A stretch of 64,000 nucleotides of DNA from Flavobacteriales bacterium (lineage in GTDB: Bacteria; Bacteroidota; Bacteroidia; Flavobacteriales_F; PHOS-HE28). The notes under the pieces are model-generated. The model was not told the origin of the DNA and did not search any database. It saw nothing but the letters and a program-made list of their open reading frames with translations. The stretch's first letter is position 1. The number at the start of each line of letters is the position of its first letter. Where the stretch lies: positions 848 to 64,847 of the forward strand of contig JBATMK010000325.1 in assembly GCA_049289815.1 (NCBI GenBank), in the 5' to 3' direction. The position numbers and the translations under genes are program-made. Of the stretch, positions 11,798 through 58,029 are shown piece by piece.

Positions 11798-11841
11798 ACT
11801 TCCTTGGTCGGTTCACCGGACCGTTCCTTCCGAGCGTGGTG

Positions 11842-11876
11842 CCGTCCTTCCTGAGCGTCGCCGCGTGGAAGGACGG
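11842..11876 (+). terminator. Perfect 10-bp inverted repeat (candidate terminator or regulatory stem-loop) after wzt
   Basis: ccgtccttcc-(15 nt)-ggaaggacgg, 45 nt downstream of the wzt stop. There is no U-tract. Confidence 0.35.
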
Positions 11877-11993
11877 TAGTTCAGCGATCTTCAACATGCT
11901 GGCGCACCAACCCCAAGTTCTCCTACTGATGCCTATGGTGGCCTTGCGTCACGACGGCGTTCTCAGTCTTCGTCCTAACTGGATCACACGACT

Positions 11994-12809: not shown

Positions 12810-12867
12810 CTTACTTTGGATCTCCCTGAAGCCCCGTTGACGTGGGTCGCATTGGTGAACATCAGAC

Positions 12868-13551: not shown

Positions 13552-13561
13552 TGTCTCAGGG

Positions 13562-14740: not shown

Positions 14741-14839
14741 TGCTTGTGGGAAGGGTCGTGAACAAGTGGGGAGGTTCGTCGAGACCGTCCTTGTGCGCTT
14801 GCCCGCTATGGGCGACATTTGGGCTCTACCATTTGAACA

Positions 14840-15982: not shown

Positions 15983-15988
15983 CCAGGG

Positions 15989-18428: not shown

Positions 18429-18585
18429 GTGTGCGATCCGTTCACCCCCGCCTGCGTTGCCCAAGACCTTGAGCCCGGGTAATGGGGAGTGTTTTCGATG
18501 AGCACAGCCAAGGCAGGAGCACTTCCTGGTCCCATGGAGCAACATCGGCGTGCATAAAGCGCGGGATCTAGGGCCTGGTGCTGTA

Positions 18586-41323: not shown

Positions 41324-42100
41324 CTACCTATCGTAGCAACAGCGCAGTTTCCGGGGCACCGTATCGAACGCCGGACCAACGCTTGAATGGGTGCAGCTCG
41401 TGGCTCCGACCACACGCACCCCGCCGGGGCCGTTCCCGGTATTGTTGGTCCACTCCCATTGGTTGCCCATGTTCTGCAAGCCGATCATGCCGGCCTGCGT
41501 GCAGGCGAAATACCATTCGCCCCAAGTGCATACACGCGCATCGAGGTTGCCGCACAGAACGGATGCGGCATCCAGGTACAGTGTATCATGGGATACCGGC
41601 TCAATGCAGTACAGTTCGTTCACCTGCACGAAGCCCGTAGGGCAGGCGCGGCGTTCCACCCTGCGCGCGTTCGTGAGGTGGAAGACGGTGCCATCGAACA
41701 CCAAACCGGCCACCATGCCGGGTTGCAGATCGCCGGCCTGCAGATCGAGCGATCCGTTCTTGAGCACCGGATAAGGACCGCTGCCGTCCACACTGATCGT
41801 AACGGCGCCAGTGTTCGCAGCCGTGATCTTCACCAGCACGTTCGTACCCGCGATCGGCACGGTCAGGGCTGGGGTGAGGAATATGGACAGCACATCGCTG
41901 CCGGTGGCTAACGCGTAACTGTAAGCTCCTGCTTGCAATGTGCCCGCGCCCAGGGCATGATCCGACGCGGCGCCATCGGGAAGCCCGGCCACATGCCTAT
42001 CGGCGGCCGCGCCGGTGAGGATGATCGGTGCGTCGATGGAAACCTGCGCCGTTGATCGCAATGTGCCGATTGCCAGCAGGAGCAGGAGCGCGTGCTTCAT
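41324..42100 (-). CDS. Secreted protein with a conserved Cys-rich C-terminal domain ending RCCY (tandem paralogue 1)
   Basis: Signal peptide MKHALLLLLAIGTLRSTAQ. N-terminal beta-rich domain of about 130 aa, then CPTGFVQVNELYC...LCGNLDARVCTWGEWYFAC...NQWEW...RCCYDR. Start refined to 42100. Confidence 0.55.
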   Translation of the reverse strand: MKHALLLLLAIGTLRSTAQVSIDAPIILTGAAADRHVAGLPDGAASDHALGAGTLQAGAYSYALATGSDVLSIFLTPALTVPIAGTNVLVKITAANTGAVTISVDGSGPYPVLKNGSLDLQAGDLQPGMVAGLVFDGTVFHLTNARRVERRACPTGFVQVNELYCIEPVSHDTLYLDAASVLCGNLDARVCTWGEWYFACTQAGMIGLQNMGNQWEWTNNTGNGPGGVRVVGATSCTHSSVGPAFDTVPRKLRCCYDR

Positions 42101-42876
42101 CACCGGAGTTGATAACAGCAGCGCGTGGTGCCCAGGTCGGTGGTGGTGGCCGAGATGTTGAACATGCTCTTGCAGGTCCAACGCCCGATCTGGTCCACCG
42201 AATGCGTATGATCGCTCGTGTCGTCGATCCACTCCCAGTTGTTGAACAGGCCCGCTAGCTGCCCCTGCAAAGCCTGGCAAGTGAAGAGGTATTCATCCCA
42301 AGTACACAGCGCCGCGCCGCGTTCGGCACAATACTGGGCTGCGGCGAACCAGTTGAGCGCCGGCCCTTCCCCCTGCATGATGCACAACCTGGCGTTCGCT
42401 TGCAAGTAGCCATCGGGGCAACCAGTGGGTTCGGATCCCAGCAGGATGAACATGCTATCGGCGTATTGCGCTTCAGCCGGCAGGCCGGAGCGCAGGGCGC
42501 TCACCGGCAAGGATAGGCCAGTGCGATCGCGCAGCGGCACGGGCCCCAGGCCGTCCAGGTCGAGCGTTACCGCAGCCGTGTTGGAAGCCGTGGGTATCCA
42601 CCGCACACGCAATCCGTTGGTGTATGCCAGGGTGGCCGGTTGCAGGGTGAGGAGGACCGCGTTGGCACCTCCACTGGTAAGGGCCCATGCAAGACTTCCG
42701 CCCTGGGCGGCTCCCAGGGTCACCAGGTTATTGAGCGAAGTGGCCGGTGCGAGGCCATCGATCCGGCGATCTGTGGGATCCGCCCCGGTGAGCACCAATG
42801 GTTTGTCCAGGTTGACTTGCCCGAACGCGAGGTGTGCGATCAGCGCTGCTGGACCGATGATCAGCGCGCGCCTCAT
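42100..42876 (-). CDS. Secreted Cys-rich C-terminal domain protein (tandem paralogue 2)
   Basis: MRRALIIGPAALIAHLAFGQ signal peptide. CPDGYLQANARLC...YCAERGAALCTWDEYLFTC...NNWEW...TRCCYQLR. Start refined to 42876. Confidence 0.55.
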   Translation of the reverse strand: MRRALIIGPAALIAHLAFGQVNLDKPLVLTGADPTDRRIDGLAPATSLNNLVTLGAAQGGSLAWALTSGGANAVLLTLQPATLAYTNGLRVRWIPTASNTAAVTLDLDGLGPVPLRDRTGLSLPVSALRSGLPAEAQYADSMFILLGSEPTGCPDGYLQANARLCIMQGEGPALNWFAAAQYCAERGAALCTWDEYLFTCQALQGQLAGLFNNWEWIDDTSDHTHSVDQIGRWTCKSMFNISATTTDLGTTRCCYQLR

Positions 42877-43649
42877 TTGTTGTAGCAGCAACGGAAGTTG
42901 TTCGTGCCCAACGGGACCTGGGTCCCACCGCCATAGCAATCGGGGTTCATCGTTCCGGTTGTCAGGCCTGCGCGCTTTCCATGGTTGATGTCGTTGGCAG
43001 CACTATCGACCCATTCATACTCCACAATGCTGTTGACGAAACCGCCCGGCATGCTGCAACCCCGGAACCAATCGGCCCAACCGCACAAGCGCAAGCCGCG
43101 CAAACCGCATTGGCTCACAGCATTGTACCACGATGTGGGCCCATAGGGCACTGCCTCTGCGCACACCTCCCGGCTTACGTCCAGGAAACCCGGAGGGCAC
43201 GCGATACCGGTTTGCGAGAGCAGTTGGAAAGCGGCGCCATCATACACCAGCAGGACTGGAATGCCGGGTCGCAGATCCGCGCTGTCGAGCTGTTCCGTAG
43301 TGAATTTCAGTACCGGCACAGCACCAAGCCCATCCACGTTCAAGGTGGTCGGTGCCGTATTGGCAACGCTGGGCGTAATGCTCAGCAGCATGCCTGCGGT
43401 GTAACCGGTGATAGCGGGGACCAGGACAGCAGTGAGCGCATCGGTGCCTTGTGCCACGGCATAGGTGGTGCTTTGCGTGCGCACGCTCGCTGCGTTCGCC
43501 CCGTGATCGGCGGCGGTGGGCAAGGCAAGGCCCATCAATTGGCGATCCGCAGGAGTGGCACCATCCAAGACCACAGGCACCGGCAAATCCCATTGTGCGT
43601 TCGCGGCGACGCACGCGAGAACGGCGAGAACGGTGAGTGAATGCTTCAT
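42873..43649 (-). CDS. Secreted Cys-rich C-terminal domain protein (tandem paralogue 3)
   Basis: MKHSLTVLAVLACVAANAQ signal peptide. CPPGFLDVSREVC...QCGLRGLRLCGWADWFRGC...EYEWV...FRCCYNK. Confidence 0.55.
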   Translation of the reverse strand: MKHSLTVLAVLACVAANAQWDLPVPVVLDGATPADRQLMGLALPTAADHGANAASVRTQSTTYAVAQGTDALTAVLVPAITGYTAGMLLSITPSVANTAPTTLNVDGLGAVPVLKFTTEQLDSADLRPGIPVLLVYDGAAFQLLSQTGIACPPGFLDVSREVCAEAVPYGPTSWYNAVSQCGLRGLRLCGWADWFRGCSMPGGFVNSIVEYEWVDSAANDINHGKRAGLTTGTMNPDCYGGGTQVPLGTNNFRCCYNK

Positions 43650-44518
43650 GGTTTCACGAAGCGCAGTTGATGTGTGCCGTTCACCAATACGGCATAGGCC
43701 CCCGGCGACAACATTGAAATGTCAATGACAGCGTTGGTGGTGGATGCGGAGCCCGAGTACACGATCCGGCCGCGCGCATCGAACACCTGGAACGGGCCGA
43801 TCCGTGTTGCGCCATGCACTGTAACAGTTCCGGTGGCCACGGTAGGGAACAGGTGGAAACCATCGCGACCGACCAACACCGCTACATCGGAGATCACCGC
43901 ATCATCGAAGAGGGTGAACCAGCCCAAACTGTCGGGCAGGGTTGCCGTAGCCGTGTGTGCGCCGAGATCGATCGTGCTGCCGAGCTCCGGCCACCAAGTG
44001 CCACCAGTGCCACTGCGCGCCATGCGCAGGGCGGCTTCAGGGATCCCGTTCAGTTCGGTAAGGTCGAAGAACAACACGCCACTTGCACCAAGCGCTTGCA
44101 CCGCTCCGGATCTCACGCGGTACCAACGTGCGATGCTCTCCACAGCGAGGTTGTTGATGCGCGGCAGATGTCCGCGCTCCACAATGAAACTGTCGGGCGC
44201 AAGAGCAGTGGTGAAGCTGAAACCGAGCCCGGCCGGTTCGGTGAAAGTGAGCGGTGCACTGTAGAGGCGGGAAGTGATCTCGGTACCTGCACCGGTAATG
44301 GGCGCACCCGCTTGCTCATCCAGTTCCGCTTGCGGGCCGAAGACGATACGGCCATCGTTCACCATGTATGATCCAGCCTCAACAGTGAAGCTGACCGGCG
44401 CTTCGATGTGAAGGGTCGTGCCATTGCTCACGGCCAATGACGTGCCCTGATGCAAGACCATCTGGCCTTGGCAAGTCATAGAGACCACTGCAATGCAAGA
44501 AAGAAGGGCCCGCTTCAT
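43646..44518 (-). CDS. T9SS type-A C-terminal sorting domain protein (secreted cargo)
   Basis: Signal peptide MKRALLSCIAVVSMTCQGQ. The C-terminal roughly 80 aa (..IVYSGSASTTNAVIDISMLSPGAYAVLVNGTHQLRFVKP) matches the Por-secretion tail. ATGA overlap with paralogue 3. Start refined to 44518. Confidence 0.6.
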   Translation of the reverse strand: MKRALLSCIAVVSMTCQGQMVLHQGTSLAVSNGTTLHIEAPVSFTVEAGSYMVNDGRIVFGPQAELDEQAGAPITGAGTEITSRLYSAPLTFTEPAGLGFSFTTALAPDSFIVERGHLPRINNLAVESIARWYRVRSGAVQALGASGVLFFDLTELNGIPEAALRMARSGTGGTWWPELGSTIDLGAHTATATLPDSLGWFTLFDDAVISDVAVLVGRDGFHLFPTVATGTVTVHGATRIGPFQVFDARGRIVYSGSASTTNAVIDISMLSPGAYAVLVNGTHQLRFVKP

Positions 44519-44602
44519 TAGGAGGCCGAAAATAGCCCTGCCAGCACCTTTCCACCAAACGCCCCCGGCTACTTTTGGCCGCCTTCGAGCAACAAGGCTC
44601 TC

Positions 44603-45001
44603 ATGGACCTGAAAGCACTTCTGTACGATCAGCTCGGCCACTTCACGGTTGCGGACATTGCCATGATCCTCTTCGGCATGTTCGCCGCTGCATTGCTGGC
44701 CTGGCTGGCAGGTTTCATCGGCAGGGCGGTTGAAGGTGAGAGACGGCAGATGGCCTTGTTGGCGTGTGCGATCGCATTCGCTGTTTCCATCGTACGTGCC
44801 TCACTTCCGCTATCCGTGGCGTTGCTGGCCTCAGCGCTTTTCCTCCGGTCACCCATGAGCGAGGGCGGCTGGAAGCCTTTCGCACTGCGCGCGGTAACGC
44901 TGGCCATCGGTATCGGCTGCGGTGCCAGTGCTGCGTTGATCACCGTGGTACCGGCGGTGCTTCTCGCATTCCTACTGCGGTGGGCCAATAGCCGTTCCTG
45001 A
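44603..45001 (+). CDS. Small hydrophobic membrane protein (hypothetical)
   Basis: 132 aa with 3-4 predicted TM helices. Directly upstream of the CotH gene. No recognised motif. Confidence 0.3.
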   Translation: MDLKALLYDQLGHFTVADIAMILFGMFAAALLAWLAGFIGRAVEGERRQMALLACAIAFAVSIVRASLPLSVALLASALFLRSPMSEGGWKPFALRAVTLAIGIGCGASAALITVVPAVLLAFLLRWANSRS

Positions 45002-45006
45002 CGCTG

Positions 45007-46494
45007 ATGATGACGCGCATTTGGAACGTCCCGGCGGCGCTGTTCATCGGTTCGGCCGTGTGCTTCCTGCTTGCTGCGGCGCTACGGCCGGGATCGGTGG
45101 CGGGCTCGGAGCAACTGGCCCGGTATGGCAGGGTGGAGGATCTGCTGTATGCGCCAACCGCACTGCAATGGCGTCGGCCGATGGGCGACTTTCCTTGGGC
45201 GATGTTCACAACGGGACCCGTGCGTACGCAGCCGCCACGGGTCCATAGCCGGCTTGCTGTGGTCTCGTTGGTATTGCCTTACGATCACCTCTTCGATCCG
45301 GAGCATGGTCTTTACACCGTTGGCCATGCGATCCTTCACGATGCAGACCGCGTGGCCCTGAAGTACCTGCGCGAACCACGTTGGTGGAAGTATCCCGGCA
45401 ACTACTTGTTCCGCGGCAAGGAATGGGAGCGGAGCGCCAACATCGAGATCTTCGATGGCAACGGTGAACCGGTGTGCAACGAGCCGGTCGGCATCCGCAT
45501 CAACGGCAACACCACGCGCGGCTTCCCGCAAAAGGCGCTGCGCGTTTCCTTCTTTCCCGGGGCAGGGGGAGGACAAGCCATACGCCTCTTTGGCGATGAT
45601 GCGCGACACTATGACGAGATCGTCCTGCGGGCCAGCGGGAACGACCAGGACCGCACCATGTTCCGGGATGCGGTGCAGCACCGGCTGTGCGAAGCGCTTC
45701 CCTTCGACGTGAGCCGTGCCGTGCAGAGCGTGGTGTACATCAATGGTGCGTACTGGGGCATCCACAACATACGCGAACGGGTGGAGGACGATGAGCTGGC
45801 CATCCGATATGGGTTGAAGAAGAACAACATCGTGGTTTTGGCCGATCGTGCATTGCCATACCGCGGCGATGATGATGGTGTGGAAGCGAAGCGTTTCAAG
45901 ATGTGGTTGAAGCGGATGGAGCGGATGGATCCGCAGGCAGGGATGCTGCAGGATTCGATCGCCGCCGTTGTGGATCCCGAGGGGTTCCTGCACTACATGG
46001 CCGCACAGATCATTTTCGGCAACACCGATTGGCCGGACCAGAACGTGAAATTCTGGAGGTTCACCGGCAAGGCCGATACGGCGAACGCGAAGACCGATGG
46101 TCGTTGGCGCTTCATCATGGGCGATAGCGACCTGAGCTTCGGATATGCCGAACTACCCGCCGACGCGTACCCGGACATGTTCGCGCATTTGGAGCGCAAA
46201 CAAGGCCCGGTGGCCCGGTTGTTCCGTTGTTGTATGCGGTCACCGGAAATGGAAGCGCGGTTCGGCGTTATCCTGCGGCAGCTCTTGGACGGGTCGTTAT
46301 CGGGACAGCGCATGGAAAGCATGGTGCACGAGATGGCCCGCAACATCGACGCGGAGATGCATCGGCAGGTGCGCCGTTGGCGCCGACCACGGGATCACGC
46401 GGTCTGGCAGAGCCATGTGCACCATATGGTCACCTTTGCGCGGGGCCGCTCCACCGTGGTGTGGGGTCAATGGCAGGCCTGGCAGCAGCACTGA
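45007..46494 (+). CDS. CotH-family protein (atypical kinase fold)
   Basis: CotH-like blocks: VGIRINGNTTRGFPQKALRVSF, DRTMFRDAVQHRLCEALPF...VVYINGAYWGIHNIRERVE, IFGNTDWPDQNVKFWRF, IMGDSDLSFG. Confidence 0.55.
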   Translation: MMTRIWNVPAALFIGSAVCFLLAAALRPGSVAGSEQLARYGRVEDLLYAPTALQWRRPMGDFPWAMFTTGPVRTQPPRVHSRLAVVSLVLPYDHLFDPEHGLYTVGHAILHDADRVALKYLREPRWWKYPGNYLFRGKEWERSANIEIFDGNGEPVCNEPVGIRINGNTTRGFPQKALRVSFFPGAGGGQAIRLFGDDARHYDEIVLRASGNDQDRTMFRDAVQHRLCEALPFDVSRAVQSVVYINGAYWGIHNIRERVEDDELAIRYGLKKNNIVVLADRALPYRGDDDGVEAKRFKMWLKRMERMDPQAGMLQDSIAAVVDPEGFLHYMAAQIIFGNTDWPDQNVKFWRFTGKADTANAKTDGRWRFIMGDSDLSFGYAELPADAYPDMFAHLERKQGPVARLFRCCMRSPEMEARFGVILRQLLDGSLSGQRMESMVHEMARNIDAEMHRQVRRWRRPRDHAVWQSHVHHMVTFARGRSTVVWGQWQAWQQH

Positions 46495-46500
46495 ACCGCC

Positions 46501-47871
46501 ATGATCGCCTTCGTCCGCGAATACCTGCAGTTCTTCTTGATCATACTGGTGTGGGTGGTGACAACCATCTACCTGGGTCCGCTGATCTATTTGATCATGC
46601 CGGCCACCTTTTTCATGTTCCGTGCGCAGGGTAAGTACCAAGAGATAGTGATGGGCTTCCTGATCGTGCTGATCATGTCGGACATCGATCCGGATATGAT
46701 CGCAATGGGTCCGGTGAAGGAGGCGAAGAACTTCGTGATGCTCACCCTGGCGATCATCTTCTTCATGGAGCGCCCGAAATTCGAGCCGCTCAGTGGCATC
46801 TTCCCGATCTTCCTTCCGTTCTTCGTCTATTCCATTTTCCCGCTCATCTTCAGTGGCCGGATCGTGGTGGCCTCACAGAAGACGCTGAGCTACGCATTGC
46901 TGTTCCTGTTGGTGCCGAATTGGTTCCTCCTGAACTTCCGGTTGTACAAGTGGGACTTCGTGCGTAACCTCATCTACTTCATCTGCCTGGTTTTGTTGGT
47001 GGCACCGCTGATCGGCCAGATCGAGCGCTGGTACACCATCATCGATGGCCGGTACCGTGGTGTGTTCGGCAACCCCAACGGATTGGGCATTTTCTGCTTC
47101 CTCAGCTTCCTGGTGGTGGCCGTGGCGGAGCACATCAACAAAGAGCTCTTCCCCAGCAGGATCATGCGCTACCTCGTGTACGGCATCATCCTGCTCAACC
47201 TGATCCGGTGCGGGTCGCGCACCGGCCTCACCGCCACCTTGCTGTTCCTGGTCTTCTCCCGGTTCTTCAGCGTTTCCCCCTTCATCGGCTTCATCATCTT
47301 CCTCTTGTTCGTCGCGGGTTTGCACTACCTCACGAGCAACCTGGCCCACATCGTCATCTCGCTCGGGTTGCAGGACTTCATGCGGGTGGATACGCTGGAG
47401 GATGGGAGCGGCCGCTACTTCGCATGGGCCTTCGCCTGGGAGAAGATCCAGGACTATTTCCTGTTGGGCGGTGGTTTCGGTAACGATGAGTATGTGATGC
47501 GGCAGCACTACGTGTATCTGCGTTCGATGGGCCACCACGGCGGGGTGCACAACAGTTACCTCACCATGTGGTTCAATGTGGGCATCATCGGACTGGGTAT
47601 CTATCTGCGCAGCCTGTTCGTCACCTTCGTGAAAGCGAGCAAGCTCACACCCATCGCCTTCGCGGTGCTCTTCGCCATCCTGTTCAGCGCGCTGTATGAA
47701 AGCTGGCTCAACGGCTCGTTGAACCCCTTCACCATCCTGGTGGTGATCGTAATGACCATGATCAGCGAGGAGGAAGTGGCCCACTGGCGTGAATACGAAG
47801 TGGACGCTCTCCAGCAGGATGAAGTTGAAGCCCTTGAGCCAGCACCCGTGTTGATCCTGCCGGCCCGATAG
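46501..47871 (+). CDS. O-antigen ligase / polymerase family membrane protein (Wzy/WaaL-like)
   Basis: 456 aa, about 10-12 TM helices, with a large loop carrying the conserved region RCGSRTGLTATLLFLVFS...LGGGFGNDEY typical of Wzy_C domains. Confidence 0.6.
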   Translation: MIAFVREYLQFFLIILVWVVTTIYLGPLIYLIMPATFFMFRAQGKYQEIVMGFLIVLIMSDIDPDMIAMGPVKEAKNFVMLTLAIIFFMERPKFEPLSGIFPIFLPFFVYSIFPLIFSGRIVVASQKTLSYALLFLLVPNWFLLNFRLYKWDFVRNLIYFICLVLLVAPLIGQIERWYTIIDGRYRGVFGNPNGLGIFCFLSFLVVAVAEHINKELFPSRIMRYLVYGIILLNLIRCGSRTGLTATLLFLVFSRFFSVSPFIGFIIFLLFVAGLHYLTSNLAHIVISLGLQDFMRVDTLEDGSGRYFAWAFAWEKIQDYFLLGGGFGNDEYVMRQHYVYLRSMGHHGGVHNSYLTMWFNVGIIGLGIYLRSLFVTFVKASKLTPIAFAVLFAILFSALYESWLNGSLNPFTILVVIVMTMISEEEVAHWREYEVDALQQDEVEALEPAPVLILPAR

Positions 47872-47958
47872 GCCTCGGGTAACGTAGCGCCCCCGTCGGC
47901 CGGACACTGCACAGGGAGCGGCTGGCTACATTCGCCAGCCTTTCCCCCGGCGGCCGGA

Positions 47959-49383
47959 ATGCTCTTCAACTCGTTCGCGTTCATCGTCTTCCTGCCGCTG
48001 GTCTTTCTCGGTTACTGGTGGTTGTTCGGCCGCTCCTTGCGCGGGCAGAACCTGTTCATCATTGCCGCCAGCTACCTGTTCTACGGGTGGTGGGACTGGC
48101 GCTACCTGATCCTGCTCTTCGTCAGTTCGTTCACCGATTACTGGCTGGGGATCTACATCGACAGCAACGAGGACCAACGCAAACGCAAGCGGGCCCTCAT
48201 CCTGAGCCTGGTGTTCAACCTGGGCATCCTGGGCTTCTTCAAGTACTTCAACTTCTTCATCGACAGTTTCGCCGACCTGCTGCGTTCGGTGGGTTTCCAG
48301 CCCAACATGTGGAGTTTGCGGGTGATCCTTCCGGTGGGCGTGAGCTTCTACACGTTCCAATCGCTCAGCTATACCATCGAGGCGTATAGGCGCAACTTCA
48401 AACCGGCCCGCGACCCGATCGCCTATCTCGCGTTCGTCAGCTTTTTCCCGCACATGGTGGCCGGCCCCATCATGCGGGCGGTCGACCTGTTGCCGCAGTT
48501 CCAGCGCCTGCGCACCTTCGATATGGCGAAGGCCCGCGACGGTGCGCGCCAGATGCTCTGGGGCTTCTTCAAGAAGATCGCCATCGCCGATCCCTGTGCA
48601 TGGATGGTGAACCGCATCTTCGATATGGACCCGGCACAAACGCCCGGCATCACGCTGTTCTTCGGTGCCGTCTTCTTCGCCTTCCAGATCTACGGCGATT
48701 TCAGCGGCTACTCCGATATCGCCATCGGTTGCGCGCGCTTCTTCGGCATCGACCTGATGCGCAACTTCAACTACCCGTATTTCTCGCGCAGCATCGGCGA
48801 GTTCTGGCGCCGCTGGCACATCAGCCTCAGTACGTGGTTCCGCGATTTCCTCTATGTTCCTTTGGGCGGGAGCCGTGTGCCGCGGGGGCGACACATCCTC
48901 AATCTCATGATCACCTTCACCATCAGCGGCCTCTGGCACGGCGCCAACTGGACTTTCGTGACGTGGGGCGCCTTGAACGGCGCGTACTACGTGCCTGAAG
49001 TGCTCTCCGGCACCAAGGAACGCATCGGGCACCCGATGTTGCGCGACCTGCCGCGCATCCTCTTCACGTTCGTACTGGTCACCCTCACTTGGGTGTTCTT
49101 CCGATCGGTTTCGATCCACGATGCCTTCGCTTACCTGCGCTACACGTTCGCGAACATCGGTTCGCATCCTGGCGCTGCTCTGGTGTGGCTGCAAAGCCAA
49201 CAGGCGCTGTTGGTGGGTGTGCTGTTGGTGGTGGAATGGATCCGCCGTCGGCGCCAGCACCCATTGGAGGATATTCACTTCCACGTGGCCGTTCGCTGGA
49301 TGATCTACCTGGTGATCGCCCTCGTGGTGCTCTACAAGCTGAACGTTGATGCCGAGAACGAGTTCATCTATTTCCAGTTCTGA
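47959..49383 (+). CDS. MBOAT family O-acyltransferase (second copy, AlgI/DltB-like)
   Basis: Paralogue of 28166..29599 (MLFNSFAF..., FWRRWHISLSTWFRDFLYVPLGGSR, GLWHGANW). About 50% identical by eye. Confidence 0.85.
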   Translation: MLFNSFAFIVFLPLVFLGYWWLFGRSLRGQNLFIIAASYLFYGWWDWRYLILLFVSSFTDYWLGIYIDSNEDQRKRKRALILSLVFNLGILGFFKYFNFFIDSFADLLRSVGFQPNMWSLRVILPVGVSFYTFQSLSYTIEAYRRNFKPARDPIAYLAFVSFFPHMVAGPIMRAVDLLPQFQRLRTFDMAKARDGARQMLWGFFKKIAIADPCAWMVNRIFDMDPAQTPGITLFFGAVFFAFQIYGDFSGYSDIAIGCARFFGIDLMRNFNYPYFSRSIGEFWRRWHISLSTWFRDFLYVPLGGSRVPRGRHILNLMITFTISGLWHGANWTFVTWGALNGAYYVPEVLSGTKERIGHPMLRDLPRILFTFVLVTLTWVFFRSVSIHDAFAYLRYTFANIGSHPGAALVWLQSQQALLVGVLLVVEWIRRRRQHPLEDIHFHVAVRWMIYLVIALVVLYKLNVDAENEFIYFQF

Positions 49384-49384
49384 A

Positions 49385-50311
49385 ATGCGCAGCGAGGTCA
49401 ATGCCTTCCTGGTCCGCTTGCTGCTCTTCGGATCGGTGCTCGGCTCCGTGCTTGCGGTGGTGGCTGTCACCGGTCCGTTGCTCGGCTATATAGATTACAT
49501 GGGGGCTATACGCAGCAAGCACCAGCGGCTGGCATCCACGCCTTCGCCACGGCTGGTGATCATCGGTGGTTCCAACGCAGCGTTCGGCATCAACAGCACG
49601 GAACTGGAACAGGCCGTGGGCATGCCGGTGGTGAACATGGCCCTGCACGGGAGTCTGGGCTACCGCTTCATGGTGAACGAAGTGATCGACGATCTGCGCG
49701 AAGGGGACGTGCTGCTGGTGGTACCCGAGCATTCTCAGTTCCAAACGCCGGAAAAAACACAGGATGTACTGTACAGCGCCTTGGAGCTGTACCCGCCAGC
49801 TTGGCGCTACGTTCCGGTCGCTTCCTGCGTGCAGGTGGCGTTGACCTATTCCGTCAAGAAGCTCCAGGCCGCCGTTGATGTCGTGGTCGATCCGGACATT
49901 CCCAAACCCGAACCCGTATACCGTGCCGATGGGTTCGATGAGCGCGGCGACCTGCTGTTGCATTTGAACAGGGTGAGCTTCGGGACGAAGTATGCCAAGC
50001 CGATGGAAGTGGATCGCATTGATGTGCCCTGGCTTTTCTGGGCCATAACCGATCGACTGACGAACAGGGCGGATAGGCAGCACTTCAAGGTGCTCTTCGC
50101 CTGGCCCAGCCAGGCACGCTCAACGGCCAAGGCGAGCATTGATGCCGGTCTGGTGGAAGACCTCAAGGCCCACGACATTGCCATTGTAGGGCAGCCCGAA
50201 GAGCATGTCTATGACGATTCGCTCTTCTACGATACCAAGTACCACTTGGGCGGCGTAGGCCGCGAGTTGCGGACACAACGGTTGATCACGGATCTGAAGG
50301 GCGCCCTCTGA
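49385..50311 (+). CDS. MBOAT partner protein (second copy, AlgJ/DltD-like)
   Basis: N-terminal TM, then RLVIIGGSNAAFGINS (SGNH-like block I). Same gene-pair layout as 28166..30548. Confidence 0.5.
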   Translation: MRSEVNAFLVRLLLFGSVLGSVLAVVAVTGPLLGYIDYMGAIRSKHQRLASTPSPRLVIIGGSNAAFGINSTELEQAVGMPVVNMALHGSLGYRFMVNEVIDDLREGDVLLVVPEHSQFQTPEKTQDVLYSALELYPPAWRYVPVASCVQVALTYSVKKLQAAVDVVVDPDIPKPEPVYRADGFDERGDLLLHLNRVSFGTKYAKPMEVDRIDVPWLFWAITDRLTNRADRQHFKVLFAWPSQARSTAKASIDAGLVEDLKAHDIAIVGQPEEHVYDDSLFYDTKYHLGGVGRELRTQRLITDLKGAL

Positions 50312-50354
50312 AATACATGTACTGCCAACGGAGGAAATACTTTCACCGCACCGG

Positions 50355-52859
50355 ATGAAGAAGCGTTGGAAGATCCTGCTGGCCGTGGTGCTGCTCGTGG
50401 GTGCTGGTGCCTGGTACGGGAACCGCAAGCTGAAGGCCGTAGGGCATCCGGGCCTCGGCACCTTCATCGGTCAGTGGTGGAACAATTGGCCGAAGAGTTT
50501 CGCCATGGATCCGCCGGTGATCGAGCTGCAGGTGAACGACGAGGGCATGGCGCAGTTGGAAGCCGTGGTCGATTCAGCGCGTCGGCGCGGTGTGATCATG
50601 CCCGAAGGCAACGGCTACGTGAAGGCGAAGTTCACCGTGGATGGTGTGGAGGCCAAGTGCAAGCTGCGGATCAAGGGTAAGCTCAGCGACCATGTGCAGG
50701 GTGCGAAGTGGAGTTTCAGGGTGATCGCGAAAGGCGGTGGCGGATTCCTCGGCATGAAGCGGTTCAGCCTGCAGCATCCGGGCACGCGCAATTATCTGTG
50801 CGATTGGTTCTATCACCAGCTCAGCAAGGGTGAAGGCATCGTGGCGTTGCGCTACGGCTTTTGCAAAGTCTCACTGAACGGCGATGACCTCGGCGTATAT
50901 GCCTACGAGGAACACTTCGGTCCCGAGCTGTTGGAGAACAACGGCCGGCTCAAGGGACCGCTGGTGCGTTTCGATCCGGGGCTCTATTGGGTGCACAGGC
51001 TCAACGGCATGGAGGGCCGCGACTTCGAGGAAGCCTATGCCGACTACCAGGCTGCCGCGCTCGATGCCTTCGACAGCGAGGAACTGGTGAACGATCCCCA
51101 ACAAATGCGCTACTTCCAGCAGGCGCTTGCCCTCGTGAACGGTTTCCGTCGAGGAGAATTGACCGCTGCGCAGGTCTTCGATCTCCGGAAGATGGCCAAG
51201 CGCCATGCGATCATCGATCTGGTGGGTGGCCACCACAGCATGGATTGGAGCGACGTGAAGTTCTACTTCGATCCTGTGGCGCAACGCTTGGAGCCGGTGA
51301 GCTACGAGAGCTTCAGCGCCTTCCCCACAACGAAACTCGCGGGAGCAGGAAAGTTCTCTGGGAATGACAATGCTGGCGCCGAACTGCACGATGCGCTGTT
51401 CAACGATGCCGGCTTCTTTGCGGCCTATGTGCACGAATTGGAGCATGTGAGCCGCAAGGCCTACCTCGACAGCACGTTCATGGCGATCGCCGGTGCGCTC
51501 GATACCGCGAGCGCCACACTCTATGGTGAGTTCCCTTACAAGGAGCTCGACCGGTCGATCTACTACAGGAACCAGGACATCATACGGCGCTCATTGGATG
51601 TGCCCAAGGCGGCGCACGTGTACTTGCAGGGGCATCTGGGCGATCACACCGTGTTGAAGTTGGTGCCGCTCAACAGCCTGCCTGTGGAAGTGGACGCGCT
51701 GAAGCTTGGCGACGGAAGTCTGGTGGAACCGTTACAGCGCACCATCGTACCCGCTCGTCGTGCAGGTGGTTTGGGAACACCGGTCCTCGCGGAATTCCTG
51801 ATGGCCAAGCCGCTCGATACGCTCTCGGCAAAGATCTCGTTGTTGTGCCGGGTGCTCGGTTCTTCCAAGGTGTTGGAGACGGGGATCTTCCCTGAAGCCT
51901 TGCAGGAACCAGGGGCCATGGATGCCCTGCTTGCGTTCGAAGAACCGAACGTTGCGCACTTCAACTTCCTCGTTGTTGACGATAGTGCACGCACGATCCA
52001 CTTCAGGTCGGGCAAATGGAATCTCGCGGAGACCTTGGTGATCCCCGCGGGTTACATGGTGCATGGGTCGGCCCCGCTCGAAGTCGACCTGTCGAACGGC
52101 GCAGCTATCATCAGCTATTCGCCGCTCGCATTGACCGGAAATGAGGAGTCCCACATCCGTGTGTTCAGCAGCGACAGTTCGTCGCATGGTGTGCATGTTA
52201 TCGAAGCGCCGGCCCGCAGCAGCCTTGCCTTCGTGGACTTCGTTCACCTTGGCCGGTTCGCCGAGGATCAGGTTGTGAGCGGGGATGTGTCCTTCCACAA
52301 GACCACGGTGGAGATAACACAATGTTCCTTCTCCGGCAGGGCGAACACCTTGCTCGATGTCTCGGTGGGAAGCGCTTCCCTTGTCGGATGCTCCTTCACC
52401 GGAGGCAGCGATCAACTGGAATTGCATCATGTGCGTGGGAAGCTCCGTTCGGCGCGCTTCAATGGCGCGGCCGACGATGCCTTGAGTGTCGAAGGCGGAG
52501 TTTTGGAGTTGCGCGATGTGGACGTTGCAGACGCAGTGGGGATCGCAGTGAAGGCCACGGCGGGGGCTGATGTCACAGGAACGGACATCCATGTCGTGGG
52601 CGTGGGCCAAGGTGTCGAAGCAAGGACCGGAAGCACAGTGAAGCTTACTGGCGGCAACATGGAGGCGGAACACGTCGGTGCCGAGACCGGCAAGGCCAGC
52701 ATGCGCGATGGTGCTGCACGCGTGGTCCTGGAGAAGGTGACATTGCGGGTGAAAGAGAAGGCCACCCTATGTGGCGAGGGCAGCAGCTTGGTGATCGATG
52801 GAAAGGAGATGTGTGCGCCTGTTGCGAAAAAGTCAGAACCACAAGCTGGGAACGAATGA
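50355..52859 (+). CDS. CotH-family kinase-fold protein with a C-terminal right-handed beta-helix (pectate-lyase-like) repeat domain
   Basis: N-terminal TM/signal, then CotH blocks (KLRIKGKLSDHVQGAKWSFRV; YLCDWFYHQLSKGEGIVALRYGFCKVSLNGDDLGVYAYEEHF; GGHHSMDWSDVKFYFDPV). The C-terminal roughly 250 aa consists of parallel beta-helix repeats (...VSVGSASLVGCSFTGGSDQLELHHVRG...). Confidence 0.6.
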   Translation: MKKRWKILLAVVLLVGAGAWYGNRKLKAVGHPGLGTFIGQWWNNWPKSFAMDPPVIELQVNDEGMAQLEAVVDSARRRGVIMPEGNGYVKAKFTVDGVEAKCKLRIKGKLSDHVQGAKWSFRVIAKGGGGFLGMKRFSLQHPGTRNYLCDWFYHQLSKGEGIVALRYGFCKVSLNGDDLGVYAYEEHFGPELLENNGRLKGPLVRFDPGLYWVHRLNGMEGRDFEEAYADYQAAALDAFDSEELVNDPQQMRYFQQALALVNGFRRGELTAAQVFDLRKMAKRHAIIDLVGGHHSMDWSDVKFYFDPVAQRLEPVSYESFSAFPTTKLAGAGKFSGNDNAGAELHDALFNDAGFFAAYVHELEHVSRKAYLDSTFMAIAGALDTASATLYGEFPYKELDRSIYYRNQDIIRRSLDVPKAAHVYLQGHLGDHTVLKLVPLNSLPVEVDALKLGDGSLVEPLQRTIVPARRAGGLGTPVLAEFLMAKPLDTLSAKISLLCRVLGSSKVLETGIFPEALQEPGAMDALLAFEEPNVAHFNFLVVDDSARTIHFRSGKWNLAETLVIPAGYMVHGSAPLEVDLSNGAAIISYSPLALTGNEESHIRVFSSDSSSHGVHVIEAPARSSLAFVDFVHLGRFAEDQVVSGDVSFHKTTVEITQCSFSGRANTLLDVSVGSASLVGCSFTGGSDQLELHHVRGKLRSARFNGAADDALSVEGGVLELRDVDVADAVGIAVKATAGADVTGTDIHVVGVGQGVEARTGSTVKLTGGNMEAEHVGAETGKASMRDGAARVVLEKVTLRVKEKATLCGEGSSLVIDGKEMCAPVAKKSEPQAGNE

Positions 52860-53896
52860 CGAAGCGCGGCCCGGTCCTACTGCTGATGTTGATGGCCGTT
52901 GTAATGCATGGTGCTGAACCCGTCAGTCCCATCACGAAGCAACCCGTCGTCATCCCCGACAGCCTGCTCACGTACAAGTTCTTGGTAAGCGGTCATTGGT
53001 ATGGTGCGAGCACCAGCCGCAGTGGCTTTCCCGCCAGCACCGTGCTGGGCAACGTGGAGAAGTTCAACGCCACAGGTGCATCCTTCTTCCTTCTCACAGG
53101 CGACATCTTCCAGAACGCGAAAAGCGATCAGGCGCGGTACACATCTGCGCTTTACGACCGACTGCATATCCCGCTCTTCAACGCCGTAGGCAACCACGAC
53201 CTTGACGGTGGATACTACACGGGCCTGTTCGGCAGCACAAGTATGCAAATGGAGTTCTACGGCGACCGGTACATCATCCTGGATACCGAGCGCGACGACA
53301 GCAGCATCAAAGGAGATCAGCTGGCCATGTTGGAGACGGCTGCTGCGGACGCGGAGGCCGGCAAGTTGCGCTACATCTTCATCACGAGCCACCGGCCGAT
53401 CTGGGCGGAAGCGGGGAACTACGCCGACCTGTTCCCGAACAACACGCGATCGGTCGCGGGTTGCAACTACGATAGCGAGGTGCTGCCACTGATCCGACGG
53501 ATGATGAAGCATGCCGAAGTGTTCTGGGTGGCTGGCAGCATGGGAGGGACAGCGGTTTCCAGCATCCTGTTCGAAACGCCCGAACCGAAGTTGCACTACG
53601 TCATGAGCTCCATCCGCGACGAAGCGCGCGATGCGGTACTGCTGGCGGAAGTCGGCCCCGACAGTGTGCGGTGGGAAGCGATCGGCCTCACAGGCAAATG
53701 GGTGGGGCCGGTGCACGAATACAATGCGGCGTGGTGGCGCGCGAATGCTGGCCGGCCGACTGGTTTTGAATGGAAGTTGTTGCCGTACTACTTCAAGAGC
53801 ACCGTATTGCATCGCGCTTTCTGGATCGGCGCCGGATCGACCCTCTTTCTGGTGATGTTGGTGCGCGCTCTCCTCCGCAGGCGGCGTGCCGGTTAG
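52856..53896 (+). CDS. Calcineurin-like metallophosphoesterase
   Basis: Signal peptide. Metal-binding blocks FFLLTGDIFQN (GD) and FNAVGNHDLDG (GNHD). ATGA overlap with the CotH gene. C-terminal TM. Confidence 0.6.
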   Translation: MTKRGPVLLLMLMAVVMHGAEPVSPITKQPVVIPDSLLTYKFLVSGHWYGASTSRSGFPASTVLGNVEKFNATGASFFLLTGDIFQNAKSDQARYTSALYDRLHIPLFNAVGNHDLDGGYYTGLFGSTSMQMEFYGDRYIILDTERDDSSIKGDQLAMLETAAADAEAGKLRYIFITSHRPIWAEAGNYADLFPNNTRSVAGCNYDSEVLPLIRRMMKHAEVFWVAGSMGGTAVSSILFETPEPKLHYVMSSIRDEARDAVLLAEVGPDSVRWEAIGLTGKWVGPVHEYNAAWWRANAGRPTGFEWKLLPYYFKSTVLHRAFWIGAGSTLFLVMLVRALLRRRRAG

Positions 53897-53920
53897 ATTC
53901 GCAGCCTTCAACAACCACGC

Positions 53921-54856
53921 ATGGCGAGGATACTGGTAACGGGAGGCGCGGGCTTCGTGGCGAGCCACTTGGCCGAGAAATTGGCCATGGACACCGCCAA
54001 CGAGGTGACCATTGTGGACAACCTCCTCACGGGCGATATGGCCAAGCTGCCGGTGCACCTGCCCAATGTGCGGTTCATCAAGTGCGATGCGAACCGCTTC
54101 GAGGACATCAGCGCGGTGTTCTATGCGCACCGTTTCGAGTACGTGTTCCATTACGCCGCCGTGGTAGGGGTGAAGCGCACGACCGACAACCCTGTGATGG
54201 TGCTGCGCGACATCGATGGCATCCGCAACGTGCTCGACCTGTCGAAGAACACCGGTGTGAAGCGCGTGTTCTTCAGCAGCAGCAGTGAGGTGTACGGCGA
54301 GCCGGTGGAAATACCGCAGAACGAGAAGACCACCCCGCTCAACAGCAAGCTGCCGTACGCCATCGTGAAGAACATCGGAGAGGCGTTCCTGCGGAGCTAC
54401 CAAAAGGAATACGGCCTGGAGTACACGGTCTTCCGCTTCTTCAACACCTACGGTCCCAAGCAGAGCCGCGATTTCGTGGTGAGCAAGTTCATGCGAGCGG
54501 CGATCAAGGGCGAGGACATCACCGTTTACGGCGATGGCAGCCAGACGCGGACCTTCTGTTGGGTCGACGACAACATCGACGCATGCGTGAACGCGTTCCA
54601 GCGCAACGCCGTCCTCAACGATGTGGTGAACATCGGGAGCGACAAGGAGATCACGGTGCTCGAACTGGCCAAGCTGGTCATCGAGCTTACGGGTTCCAAG
54701 AGCAGGATCGTTCACCTACCTCCACTGGAAGAAGGCGATATGACACGGCGCATGCCCGACATCTCCCTTATGCGCCAACTGCTGGGCCGCGAGCCCTTGC
54801 CGCTGCGCGATGGGTTGATGCGCATCCTGAAGGACCCGCGGTTCATCTTGAATTGA
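53921..54856 (+). CDS. NAD-dependent epimerase/dehydratase (UDP-glucuronate decarboxylase / UXS-like)
   Basis: GGAGFVASHL, DNLLTG, catalytic YAIVKNIGE (YxxxK), FRFFNTYGPKQ (UXS-type NTYGP signature). Confidence 0.7.
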   Translation: MARILVTGGAGFVASHLAEKLAMDTANEVTIVDNLLTGDMAKLPVHLPNVRFIKCDANRFEDISAVFYAHRFEYVFHYAAVVGVKRTTDNPVMVLRDIDGIRNVLDLSKNTGVKRVFFSSSSEVYGEPVEIPQNEKTTPLNSKLPYAIVKNIGEAFLRSYQKEYGLEYTVFRFFNTYGPKQSRDFVVSKFMRAAIKGEDITVYGDGSQTRTFCWVDDNIDACVNAFQRNAVLNDVVNIGSDKEITVLELAKLVIELTGSKSRIVHLPPLEEGDMTRRMPDISLMRQLLGREPLPLRDGLMRILKDPRFILN

Positions 54857-54879: not shown

Positions 54880-55707
54880 TCAGCGAACGACCATCAACCG
54901 CTGCGCGCCGATCGGCTGTCCGGCAACATGGAGCTGATAGAGATACGTTCCTGCCGCCAGCTCCTCGGTGCTTATCCGTGCTTGACCGGAGTGTTCAACA
55001 CCAATCCGAAAGACCTGCTGGCCGCGGTTGTTGAAGAAGAGGATATCACCGGAGTTGGAACCAGCGGGCAGCTCGTACTGGATCACAGTGCTATTGTCCG
55101 AAGGGTTCGGATACGCCTGCATGCTCCATCCTCCGGGTTGGGCGAAATGATCACCTCCGCCCGTGATCAGTGAGCCTGAACAGTCGTCACAGGGTAGATG
55201 GCCGGGAAGCTGGTAGATGGTGCTCTGCGAAGCATTGGTGGTGATCATATATGTTCCCGAATCCGTGGTGAAGATGGGCTCGTTGATACTGCCTATTCCC
55301 AACCCCACTCCAAGGGCGCCACCCAAGACCGTGAGCAAGGCTGAACCGGTCTCATCGATGACCTGCAAAGCGTATTGTGTTGGAGGGCCCGGGTTGGTGT
55401 CCACGAGGTTCGCAATGAATTCGATCGTGCTTGGATCGGTATCGAAGAGAGCTTCGGTGATGTACTGGAAGTAATTGGAAAATTCGAAGCCGGGCAATGG
55501 TGTCAAGGGGATGGACCGGAACAGCGTGAGGTCGGGGTCGTAGATGTTGAGCGCGGTCGGGGTCTGCTCAACGAACTTGACGCCGTTGGTTTCCAATGCG
55601 ACCGCAGCGTAATACGTGTTCGGTGCTTGACCCAGAACCGTGATCTGGGCATTGAGCACGGAGGCACAGGAACAGAACAGGACGAGGCATGCAATGCGAG
55701 GGTTCAT
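54880..55707 (-). CDS. T9SS type-A C-terminal sorting domain secreted protein
   Basis: Signal peptide MNPRIACLVLFCSCASVLNAQ. C-terminal Por-secretion tail (..NSTVIQYELPAGSNSGDILFFNNRGQQVF...GTYLYQLHVAGQPIGAQRLMVVR). Confidence 0.6.
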   Translation of the reverse strand: MNPRIACLVLFCSCASVLNAQITVLGQAPNTYYAAVALETNGVKFVEQTPTALNIYDPDLTLFRSIPLTPLPGFEFSNYFQYITEALFDTDPSTIEFIANLVDTNPGPPTQYALQVIDETGSALLTVLGGALGVGLGIGSINEPIFTTDSGTYMITTNASQSTIYQLPGHLPCDDCSGSLITGGGDHFAQPGGWSMQAYPNPSDNSTVIQYELPAGSNSGDILFFNNRGQQVFRIGVEHSGQARISTEELAAGTYLYQLHVAGQPIGAQRLMVVR

Positions 55708-55900: not shown

Positions 55901-56866
55901 TCAGAACTTCGCCCGGCTCTTCCGGCCGATGCGCTTCTTGCCACGCACCCAGCTGTAACGCTGGCGGTAGAAGTTCGACTGCCCCTTCAATACGTAGCTG
56001 TATGTCAGCGTCATGGTGAGGTAGCTGTCGTTGTGCGTGGGATCGCCACGTATGTTGTCCAAGCCATCGCTGCGTTCTTCCCAGCCATATTGGTACTGGT
56101 CAGGCAAGCTGTTGTCATTGGCCCATGCCGCTGCGCTCTGGTCATACATATCGAAGGCCAATCCACCTACGCCACCAGGCAACAATTCCGGGTTCACGTA
56201 CACCGTGCTGGCATCGTCCAGGTAATCGGTGAAGGTGGTACGCCAGCCGAAGTCCCAACCGATGCGATGGCGGCGCTTGAAGGTGAAATGGAAGCCGAGG
56301 CCGGCCGGGATCGCGAACCCGATCGGGCTGTAGTTGGCCAATTCGGTATCCAGCGGTCGCAAGGACACCCAATCGCCATTGGAAACGTTGGGTGTATCCT
56401 GGCCAACGAACTTGCCTTTCGGGTTGTGGTAGAACACCGCAGCGCCCACGTAGGCGAACAACCGGAAGTCGGCGCGGTACCGTCCGCGGCCCCCGATGTC
56501 GTTGTCGGCATAAATGGTGAACTCCGGCCGCACGTACAACTCGAACATGTCGTTGCGGAAATTCAGGTTGCGGCCGCGGCGCGGGCGGTAGATCGTAAGG
56601 TCATCGTTGCCTTGGATACGCAGGTACATCAAGCCGGCATTGATGCTGATGAACCGGTTGATCTTGCGGCGGGCGAAGATCCCGAATGCCCAGCGGGTCT
56701 GGCTCAACTTCAGGTCGTAGATGAAATCGCGGCGTGGTTTGTCCTTGCCGCCCATCTCACCCAGGTAGTTGGCGGCACCGGCATGTATGCCGATGTCCCA
56801 AGCGTACTGGGCGTTCGCGGTAGCCGTCAGCAGAACGGCAACGATCAGGACGTACAGCTTTCTCAT
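55901..56866 (-). CDS. Outer-membrane beta-barrel protein (porin-like)
   Basis: Signal peptide MRKLYVLIVAVLLTATANAQ. Alternating amphipathic beta-strands. C-terminal aromatic residue (..RAKF). Confidence 0.5.
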   Translation of the reverse strand: MRKLYVLIVAVLLTATANAQYAWDIGIHAGAANYLGEMGGKDKPRRDFIYDLKLSQTRWAFGIFARRKINRFISINAGLMYLRIQGNDDLTIYRPRRGRNLNFRNDMFELYVRPEFTIYADNDIGGRGRYRADFRLFAYVGAAVFYHNPKGKFVGQDTPNVSNGDWVSLRPLDTELANYSPIGFAIPAGLGFHFTFKRRHRIGWDFGWRTTFTDYLDDASTVYVNPELLPGGVGGLAFDMYDQSAAAWANDNSLPDQYQYGWEERSDGLDNIRGDPTHNDSYLTMTLTYSYVLKGQSNFYRQRYSWVRGKKRIGRKSRAKF

Positions 56867-57977: not shown

Positions 57978-58029
57978 TGGCAACAAGCCGACCTTTGCGA
58001 GCGTCTGCCATGTGGCAACGATCCGGCCG

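Follow-up and report, generated by a model that had tools for sequence, protein, structure and literature searches.

What do two CotH-family proteins do beside the polysaccharide genes of a Flavobacteriales bacterium? The question was raised by a stretch of 64,000 nucleotides (assembly GCA_049289815.1, contig JBATMK010000325.1, positions 848 to 64,847 of the forward strand), the whole of which is called the window below. An initial annotation had noted two CotH-family open reading frames (ORFs) and a metallophosphoesterase ORF within a polysaccharide island and had read them as an extracytoplasmic kinase/phosphatase layer which edits phosphate on the glycan. This reading is plausible. The genes very probably form an extracytoplasmic accessory module which is based on CotH, dedicated to polysaccharide assembly and homologous to the DUF4956-VTC-CotH system. 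That the module performs glycan-directed phosphotransfer outside the cytoplasm, i.e., adds or edits phosphate on the polymer or an intermediate, has a chance which we put slightly short of even. Points beyond the initial annotation are a DUF4956 homologue upstream of the CotH genes, a conserved unit of six genes and a distant locus (L086) which contains VTC.

At ~60% G+C across the window, long spurious ORFs shadow every real gene. Real genes were chosen by the G+C content of the third codon position (GC3), which yielded a single series of eight ORFs on the + strand (44603-54856). The GC3 of both CotH ORFs is typical for real genes. Very long antisense ORFs of 344-612 amino acids (aa), located at 47926-49470, 52877-54715 and 46873-47907 (all on the - strand), have the wrong codon-position GC pattern and, given the high G+C, are shadows and not genes. 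The eight ORFs, with transmembrane abbreviated TM and short-chain dehydrogenase/reductase SDR, are:

44603..45001, + strand: truncated DUF4956 homologue, 132 aa, about four TM segments (profile-profile and tblastn homology)
45007..46494, + strand: CotH1, N-terminally anchored CotH-family atypical kinase (Pfam PF08757; D341, N346, D373/D375)
46501..47871, + strand: Wzy_C (O-antigen ligase/polymerase family), polytopic membrane protein (Pfam Wzy_C, 3e-12, 47 bits)
47959..49383, + strand: MBOAT O-acyltransferase, lineage-specific insertion (Pfam MBOAT, 1.9e-24)
49346..50311, + strand: 321-aa single-anchor protein, lineage-specific, no family match (hydrophobic segment at residues 21-39)
50355..52859, + strand: CotH2, anchor, CotH-like domain, beta-sandwich and right-handed beta-helix (Pfam PF08757 for the N-lobe; structure model)
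52856..53896, + strand: metallophosphoesterase-like protein (Pfam Metallophos, 23.3 bits; ATGA overlap with CotH2)
53921..54856, + strand: cytoplasmic extended SDR, UXS-like nucleotide-sugar enzyme (Pfam Epimerase, 4.9e-53)

Six of these genes, from the truncated DUF4956 gene through the SDR gene, form a tight conserved operon. Relatives of CotH2 were found in 138 GTDB species representatives, all of which are metagenome-assembled genomes (MAGs) of uncultured Flavobacteriales or Bacteroidota, many of them from activated sludge or lakes. For the synteny counts, 82 loci were sampled from these representatives, and only loci with a long enough flank were counted. The order DUF4956-like, CotH1, Wzy_C, CotH2, phosphoesterase-like, SDR is conserved in at least 98% of the related loci with enough flank. 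In detail, the small TM gene is in place in 63 of 64 loci, CotH1 in all 64, Wzy_C in 69 of 70, the phosphoesterase-like gene in 68 of 69 and the SDR in all 65, at a CotH2 identity which drops to 40%. The gap between CotH1 and Wzy_C is at most 20 nt in 64/65 loci. The stop codon of CotH2 overlaps the start codon of the phosphoesterase-like gene by the ATGA at 52856-52859, as the initial annotation had stated, and 40 of 69 related loci have the same 4-nt overlap. The linkage of the CotH genes to glycan loci, which the initial annotation had derived from the neighbours in the window, extends to the relatives far beyond chance and includes L086.

Wzy-like, MBOAT and UXS-like flanking genes had likewise been named, and all are present, but the MBOAT and its 321-aa neighbour lie outside the conserved core. 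The window and L001, the closest complete-genome relative, are the only loci in which both are found between Wzy_C and CotH2. Elsewhere in the relatives an MBOAT gene is found upstream on the opposite strand, or is absent. The 321-aa protein had no match in Pfam, NCBIfam or PHROGs and a homologue in L001 only; it is presumed to be the MBOAT partner, and the true start of its gene is probably internal. A second MBOAT is encoded in the window at 28166-29599.

The small gene at the head of the operon connects the window to known loci. Searches of the 132-aa protein against Pfam and NCBIfam gave nothing significant, and for DUF4956 (PF16316) one of eight orthologues scored 11.9 bits (E 0.19), below the gathering threshold of 30.6. 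The homology became visible only once distant loci had supplied true DUF4956 sequences. A profile of 63 orthologues then aligned with four Pfam-confirmed DUF4956 proteins over 113 columns (hhalign 97.4%, E 1.5e-11), and tblastn with the DUF4956 protein of L086 matched the small TM gene in 26 loci, down to 1e-7. DUF4956 proteins have 222-231 aa; the C-terminal cytoplasmic domain (~90 aa) is absent from the small protein. This homology ties the window to a published system. The genes cotH, 'polyphosphate polymerase' (VTC) and DUF4956 were described as accessory genes which directly adjoin the pel operons of Gram-positive bacteria (PMC7112168). In S. intermedius, deletion of the CotH-FN3 gene lowers Pel, deletion of the DUF4956 gene raises it, and deletion of either the cotH-like or the DUF4956 gene decreases aggregation by more than 50% in one medium (PMC12345266). 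The initial claim of an undescribed layer has thus to be withdrawn as far as the association of cotH, DUF4956 and VTC with exopolysaccharide loci is concerned.

Eight distant loci with CotH-beta-helix genes were inspected:

L083: DUF4956, CotH-beta-helix, VTC
L084: DUF4956, CotH-beta-helix, phosphoesterase homologue (E 1e-42), within a NeuB-type locus
L085: DUF4956, CotH-beta-helix, VTC
L086: DUF4956, VTC, CotH1-like, Wzy_C, CotH2-like, phosphoesterase-like (E 3e-80), GT1, SDR
L087: CotH-beta-helix, VTC
L088: 258-aa gene without assignment, CotH-beta-helix
L089: DUF4956, CotH-beta-helix, VTC, followed by a PMT_2 GT-C enzyme
L090: PMT_2, DUF4956, two tandem CotH-beta-helix genes, Wzy_C

DUF4956 and/or VTC adjoin the CotH-beta-helix genes in seven of the eight. 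L086 corresponds to the window module plus a full-length DUF4956 gene and VTC, at 32-41% identity (SDR 60%) and with different flanks, and Wzy_C again sits between its two CotH genes. Glycan transferases of the periplasmic face (Wzy_C, PMT_2, MptA/B) recur beside CotH-beta-helix genes. On sequence grounds, the window module is a predicted VTC-less form of the widespread DUF4956-VTC-CotH set, either derived from a VTC-containing system or its sister. As a side observation, GT-C genes (PMT_2, MptA_B_family) and LPG_synthase_TM adjoin the DUF4956, CotH-beta-helix and VTC genes at L089 7001-13159, L090 22-9226 and L087 340-4970.

Both ORFs taken for CotH proteins score above the Pfam threshold of PF08757 (23.8 bits). 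CotH1 does so over profile positions 1-320 of 322 (E 4.9e-40, 138.4 bits). Its sequence agrees completely (100% identity) with that of P0121, a protein of an uncultured Flavobacteriales MAG which bears the annotation 'CotH kinase family protein'. A single hydrophobic segment of 19 residues is located at the N-terminus of CotH1. An AlphaFold2 model, with the family alignment as input, reached a predicted local distance difference test score (pLDDT) of 84 and a predicted template modelling score of 0.84. When PDB chains were searched by sequence with CotH1 and with the profiles of both CotH families, the solved CotH structure 5JD9 was not reached; CotH1 and CotH2 are thus very divergent members of the family. 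By fold comparison both are linked to 5JD9 and have the atypical protein-kinase-like fold of B. cereus CotH. Fam20 secretory kinases were not their closest structural or sequence family.

To locate the catalytic residues, the chain sequence of 5jd9 was retrieved with a CotH sequence as query (E 8e-233) and aligned with both families. NTDWPDQN of CotH1 aligns to NFDGFVHN, and IMGDSDLSFG to IPWDYDATWG. D341, N346, D373 and D375 of CotH1 therefore take the positions of the catalytic Asp, the Asn and the DFG-like motif, and are invariant in 25 orthologues. The aligned Asp residues of 5jd9 have the same numbering (228, 251) as D228 and D251 of B. subtilis CotH, whose mutation inactivates that kinase (PMC7821199). 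Since its canonical residues are aligned to 5jd9 and invariant, CotH1 looks like a catalytically competent kinase, as far as can be predicted. Most CotH1 orthologues are longer (~550 aa), with Fn3_assoc and CHB_HEX_C_1 domains at the N-terminus; those of the window's subclade have ~490 aa and no Pfam match to either domain, and their N-terminal region is of low confidence in the model.

CotH2 exceeds the Pfam cut-off only narrowly (25.9 bits, E 8.9e-6) and by its N-lobe, residues 104-251. The anchor and the right-handed beta-helix which the initial annotation had described are both borne out, by a short signal-peptide-like hydrophobic segment after KKRWK and by an AlphaFold2 model on the family alignment (pLDDT 81). 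The model comprises a CotH-like domain (~51-415), a beta-sandwich (~416-515) and the beta-helix (~540-815), which is variable in sequence and in fold comparison resembles glycan-processing enzymes. In a profile-profile comparison of the CotH2 and CotH1 families only the N-lobe was aligned, at E 0.064; hence, the two are not recent paralogues. An AlgG-like C5-epimerase function for the beta-helix was considered and rejected, as direct reading of the sequence did not reveal the DPHD motif.

The kinase assignment stands for CotH1, which keeps Asp, Asn and the DFG-like Asp, but not in canonical form for CotH2. Its catalytic loop reads GGHHSMDWSD, with Asp300 at the Asn position and Glu318 at the position of the DFG-like Asp, and the canonical catalytic triad of CotH is incomplete. 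His294 and Asp288 are conserved candidates nearby. From an exhaustive HMMER search, 126 CotH-beta-helix proteins were aligned, among which His294 is found in 110 and Asp288 in 114. Two types can be distinguished, Asn300/Asp318 (n=67) and Asp300/Glu318 (n=52), with seven mixed sequences; all 52 Asp300/Glu318 proteins also have Asp297. Positions 300 and 318, the putative metal ligands, consequently co-vary almost perfectly. The CotH-like domain is the best-conserved part of CotH2 (66% mean identity, 118 of 365 columns invariant); the values for the beta-helix are 38% and 11 of 305. Covariation and strong constraint together argue for a working metal-binding site with non-canonical chemistry in the CotH-like domain, and not for a decayed pseudokinase. 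A tie of the Asp/Glu type to the phosphoesterase and of the Asn/Asp type to VTC was also considered and rejected, for L084 combines Asn/Asp with a phosphoesterase gene, and L083 and L086 combine Asp/Glu with VTC.

The family is large. Searches with the CotH-like domain of CotH2 returned 3,651 cluster representatives at E<=1e-3 and 1,693 at E<=1e-30, whereby clusters were defined at 50% identity and the total is at least 3,651. Most members have 800-900 aa and the architecture of CotH2. Few carry a source name, and these are labelled 'hypothetical protein'.

The translationally coupled gene had been called a secreted calcineurin-like phosphoesterase. Membership of the superfamily was retained: the protein matches Pfam Metallophos (PF00149) with 23.3 bits against a cut-off of 21.5, over motifs II-III only, and its family profile matches the purple acid phosphatase 1war over motifs II-IV (E 0.0016). 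Of the five metallophosphoesterase motifs (DxH, GD, GNH[DE], H, GHxH), however, two are missing. In 71 sequences the motifs II-IV (GD, GNHD, SHRPxW) are invariant, motif I reads [GS]-G-H and thus has no Asp, and motif V reads SGS[ML]G and lacks its His-x-His. The protein begins with a signal-like segment and ends in a TM helix and RRRR; judged by its motifs, it is a degenerate or atypical metallophosphoesterase, for which the label 'phosphatase' is an inference.

Wzy_C (PF04932) of the module scores 47 bits against a threshold of 31.7 and has at least ten hydrophobic segments, as expected for a polytopic protein; no PDB chain was matched by its sequence. It is the only Wzy_C found in the window. 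Because the island is of the ABC-transporter type, established pathway knowledge makes a WaaL-type ligase more likely than a polymerase. The best solved relative of the SDR is human UXS1, a UDP-glucuronate decarboxylase (7e-50), closely followed by UDP-glucose 4-epimerase (GalE-type, 4e-46); in NCBIfam no equivalog scored above its cut-off. The SDR is 75-97% identical across loci in which the operon neighbours are only 40-55% identical, and is therefore far more constrained than the remainder of the module.

N-terminal or multiple hydrophobic segments were found in every module protein except the SDR. Together with the positive-inside ends they fit the extracytoplasmic location which had been proposed, and we infer that all module proteins but the cytoplasmic-looking SDR act outside the cytoplasm. 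The module would then be anchored in the inner membrane and face the periplasm. On the outer face of the cytoplasmic membrane, Wzy_C would ligate or polymerise the glycan linked to undecaprenyl diphosphate, and CotH1 may be an active phosphotransferase which transfers phosphate to the glycan or to the undecaprenyl-diphosphate-linked intermediate at the periplasmic face, near the Wzy_C reaction. The beta-helix of CotH2 might grip or trim the species-specific polymer, on which its CotH-like domain would perform or support a conserved phosphate or metal chemistry. The coupled phosphoesterase-like protein could remove or edit phosphate, or recycle the donor. The net effect would be a transient or permanent phosphorylation of the nascent glycan or of the lipid-linked intermediate. 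In the VTC-containing relatives the donor would probably be polyphosphate, made in the cytoplasm and exported via DUF4956. A more specific proposal, which we regard as speculative and rather improbable, makes CotH-beta-helix proteins ATP-independent extracytoplasmic glycan phosphotransferases. The ancestral donor would have been polyphosphate supplied by VTC through a DUF4956 channel, and H294 would replace the catalytic Asp, possibly as phospho-His. In the clade of the window VTC would have been lost and the metal site rewired (Asn to Asp, Asp to Glu), possibly for the use of undecaprenyl diphosphate released by Wzy_C, with the phosphoesterase-like partner editing the product.

Several facts weigh against phosphotransfer to a glycan. 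CotH2 is without an Asp at the canonical position of the catalytic loop, five residues before 300, three canonical metal ligands are absent from the phosphoesterase-like protein and the DUF4956 homologue of the window has lost its cytoplasmic domain. VTC (PF09359) was not found in the 64-kb window or, in the 82 related loci, within 10 kb on either side of the CotH2 gene. Localisation of the module proteins was assigned from hydrophobicity alone, and no supply of ATP is known in the periplasm. Nor is a phosphorylated glycan, a substrate or a donor known from any system of the DUF4956-VTC-CotH type. The mutant phenotypes in S. intermedius are modest, and the VTC mutant has none (PMC12345266). 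Finally, the CotH enzymes characterised biochemically so far are all protein Ser/Thr kinases (PMC7821199), and they work in a compartment that contains ATP. The former at the same time speaks for a different role: the CotH proteins could be protein kinases which regulate or pattern the assembly machinery by phosphorylating Ser/Thr of Wzy_C, of export components or of the secreted neighbours with type IX secretion system (T9SS) tails, as with CotB and CotG in spores. The same has been proposed for pel loci (PMC7112168), CotH1 has a canonical site, and secreted proteins, T9SS-tailed and tail-fibre-like, are kept in divergent orientation in 60/61 loci. These neighbours are, however, absent from distant loci which keep the module, and the vicinity encodes no substrate with Ser-rich repeats of the CotB or CotG kind; moreover, both the fusion of CotH2 to a beta-helix resembling glycan enzymes and the recurrent adjacency to Wzy_C and GT-C enzymes point to a carbohydrate substrate, so that we consider protein phosphorylation unlikely.

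A mainly structural or glycan-processing function appears improbable as well. The beta-helix would then be a periplasmic epimerase, lyase or glycanase (like AlgG or WceF) setting chain length or structure, the CotH-like domain and the phosphoesterase-like protein would be pseudoenzyme scaffolds or ligand-binding subunits, and CotH1 would be the sole catalyst, if there is one. Against this, conservation is much higher in the CotH-like domain than in the beta-helix (118/365 versus 11/305 invariant columns), the putative metal ligands of CotH2 co-vary instead of decaying, motifs II-IV of the phosphoesterase-like protein are invariant and CotH2 has no AlgG-type DPHD motif. Handling of polyphosphate itself, i.e., a system which exports, anchors or trims surface polyphosphate, with CotH proteins that bind or transfer it and a polyphosphatase comparable to yeast VTC plus Ppn2, would agree with the VTC and DUF4956 neighbours in most distant loci, with the DUF4956 homologue kept in the window and with a phosphoesterase which presumably belongs to the superfamily of Ppn2. 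It is quite unlikely, given that VTC is missing in the whole clade of the window yet the rest of the module is strictly kept, and that Wzy_C and a nucleotide-sugar SDR are invariably part of the module, which borders on a polysaccharide island. Lastly, the adjacency might be functionally meaningless synteny inherited in one clade, for all 138 species representatives are uncultured Flavobacteriales, and the downstream housekeeping genes (DUF6089, NMO, IMPDH) are syntenic in the related loci too. The same gene order is found in L086 at low identity and with other flanks, though, the pair of CotH-beta-helix and phosphoesterase genes occurs again in the NeuB-type locus L084, and overlapping or nearly abutting reading frames are conserved; the recurrence in L084 and L086 excludes mere synteny, and we give this explanation almost no weight.

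Upstream of the module, the island encodes a Wzc-like tyrosine kinase/co-polymerase, an ABC-2 permease with its ATPase, many glycosyltransferases of the families GT1, GT2 and GT4, two sulfotransferases, several methyltransferases, a TagF-like Glyphos_transf protein, the second MBOAT and nucleotide-sugar enzymes. No Wzx flippase was found in the island. Export in this region (7156-18545) appears to proceed via the Wzc-like protein and the ABC-2 permease/ATPase. The two sulfotransferases and the TagF-like protein suggest a polymer that is sulfated and possibly contains glycerol phosphate. The corresponding features are:

9509-11797: ABC-2 permease/ATPase pair
11994-12809, + strand: sulfotransferase
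13562-14740: TagF-like Glyphos_transf protein
15989-16789, - strand: sulfotransferase

Four secreted proteins are encoded divergently from the module (41324-44641, - strand). Three of them (41324-42280, 42100-42939, 42873-43649) are paralogues with a phage-tail-like segment (phrog_4900, E ~1e-7) and a Cys-rich C-terminus which terminates in CCY. The fourth (43646-44641) has a T9SS Por_Secre_tail. In 60 of 61 related loci homologues are encoded at this place; L086 lacks them. Downstream of the module, further T9SS cargo is encoded, namely a Por_Secre_tail protein (54880-55707, - strand) and a 722-aa CHU_C protein (57937-60105, + strand), and in nearly all relatives synteny extends to the gene of a DUF6089 outer-membrane protein (55901-56866). 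Near the start of the window, a 279-aa protein (871-1710, + strand) has a weak match to HTTM (vitamin-K-dependent gamma-carboxylase-like, E 6e-6), just below the gathering score.

The linkage of CotH to exopolysaccharide loci is already known from the Gram-positive pel operons (PMC7112168, PMC12345266). New are the architecture of two CotH proteins, Wzy_C, beta-helix and phosphoesterase in Bacteroidota and the finding that it is homologous to the DUF4956-VTC-CotH set. New, too, are the loss of VTC together with a truncated DUF4956, the switch of co-varying residues in the active site and the size of the CotH-beta-helix family. In the literature searched, combining CotH with polyphosphate, DUF4956, Bacteroides and extracellular kinase, no functional study beyond the two pel papers was found, nor any account of a Bacteroidota version, of a CotH-beta-helix fusion or of the function of DUF4956.

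How bacteria perform energy-requiring polymer chemistry outside the cytoplasm is still an unsolved question. A family of at least 3,651 clusters fuses a kinase fold to a glycan-enzyme fold and is recurrently encoded with a polyphosphate polymerase, DUF4956 and glycan transferases of the periplasmic face; it provides a testable candidate for extracytoplasmic glycan phosphorylation. The window represents a natural minimal version without VTC, containing one canonical and one rewired CotH, and is suited for dissecting the catalytic parts. DUF4956 gains a context linked to function, and the link between cotH and exopolysaccharide is extended from Gram-positive pel loci to Bacteroidota. The host organisms are abundant in activated sludge, where charge and phosphate of the exopolymer matter for floc formation and phosphorus removal. 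If the ATP-independent proposal were true, phosphorylation outside the bacterial cytoplasm would be powered in a manner that is new.

Among known systems, the spore-coat kinase CotH of Bacillus (PDB 5JD9/5JDA; PF08757) shares its fold with both CotH proteins of the window and its canonical residues with CotH1 only. The secretory-pathway glycan kinases of eukaryotes, i.e., the xylose kinase Fam20B with the 2-phosphoxylose phosphatase, and POMK, are counted among the closest known systems, as are the periplasmic or extracellular beta-helix enzymes which modify polysaccharides (the C5-epimerase AlgG, WceF, RbmB and the tailspike depolymerases of phages). In contrast to these enzymes, the helix of CotH2 is fused to a CotH-like domain; the DPHD motif of AlgG is absent. 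Yeast VTC, a polyphosphate polymerase/translocase, and the metallophosphoesterase-type polyphosphatase Ppn2 are taken by us as a further analogue. Common to both are a VTC catalytic domain with a membrane partner, which in the relatives is encoded beside CotH-beta-helix genes, and a membrane-anchored metallophosphoesterase on the non-cytosolic side. The bacterial VTC proteins differ in being without the TM domain of yeast VTC, to which DUF4956 is, to our knowledge, unrelated, and VTC was not found in the lineage of the window. The Gram-positive pel loci (S. intermedius SIR_1592-1594) also have a secreted CotH-family protein and DUF4956 beside an exopolysaccharide locus, and VTC, which is present in relatives of the window module. 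In the window, by comparison, DUF4956 is cut to its membrane part, VTC was not found, and two CotH paralogues, one of them fused to a beta-helix, flank the Wzy_C gene and are joined by a metallophosphoesterase-like partner; the setting is a Gram-negative periplasm and an island of the ABC-transporter/Wzc type instead of a Pel synthase.

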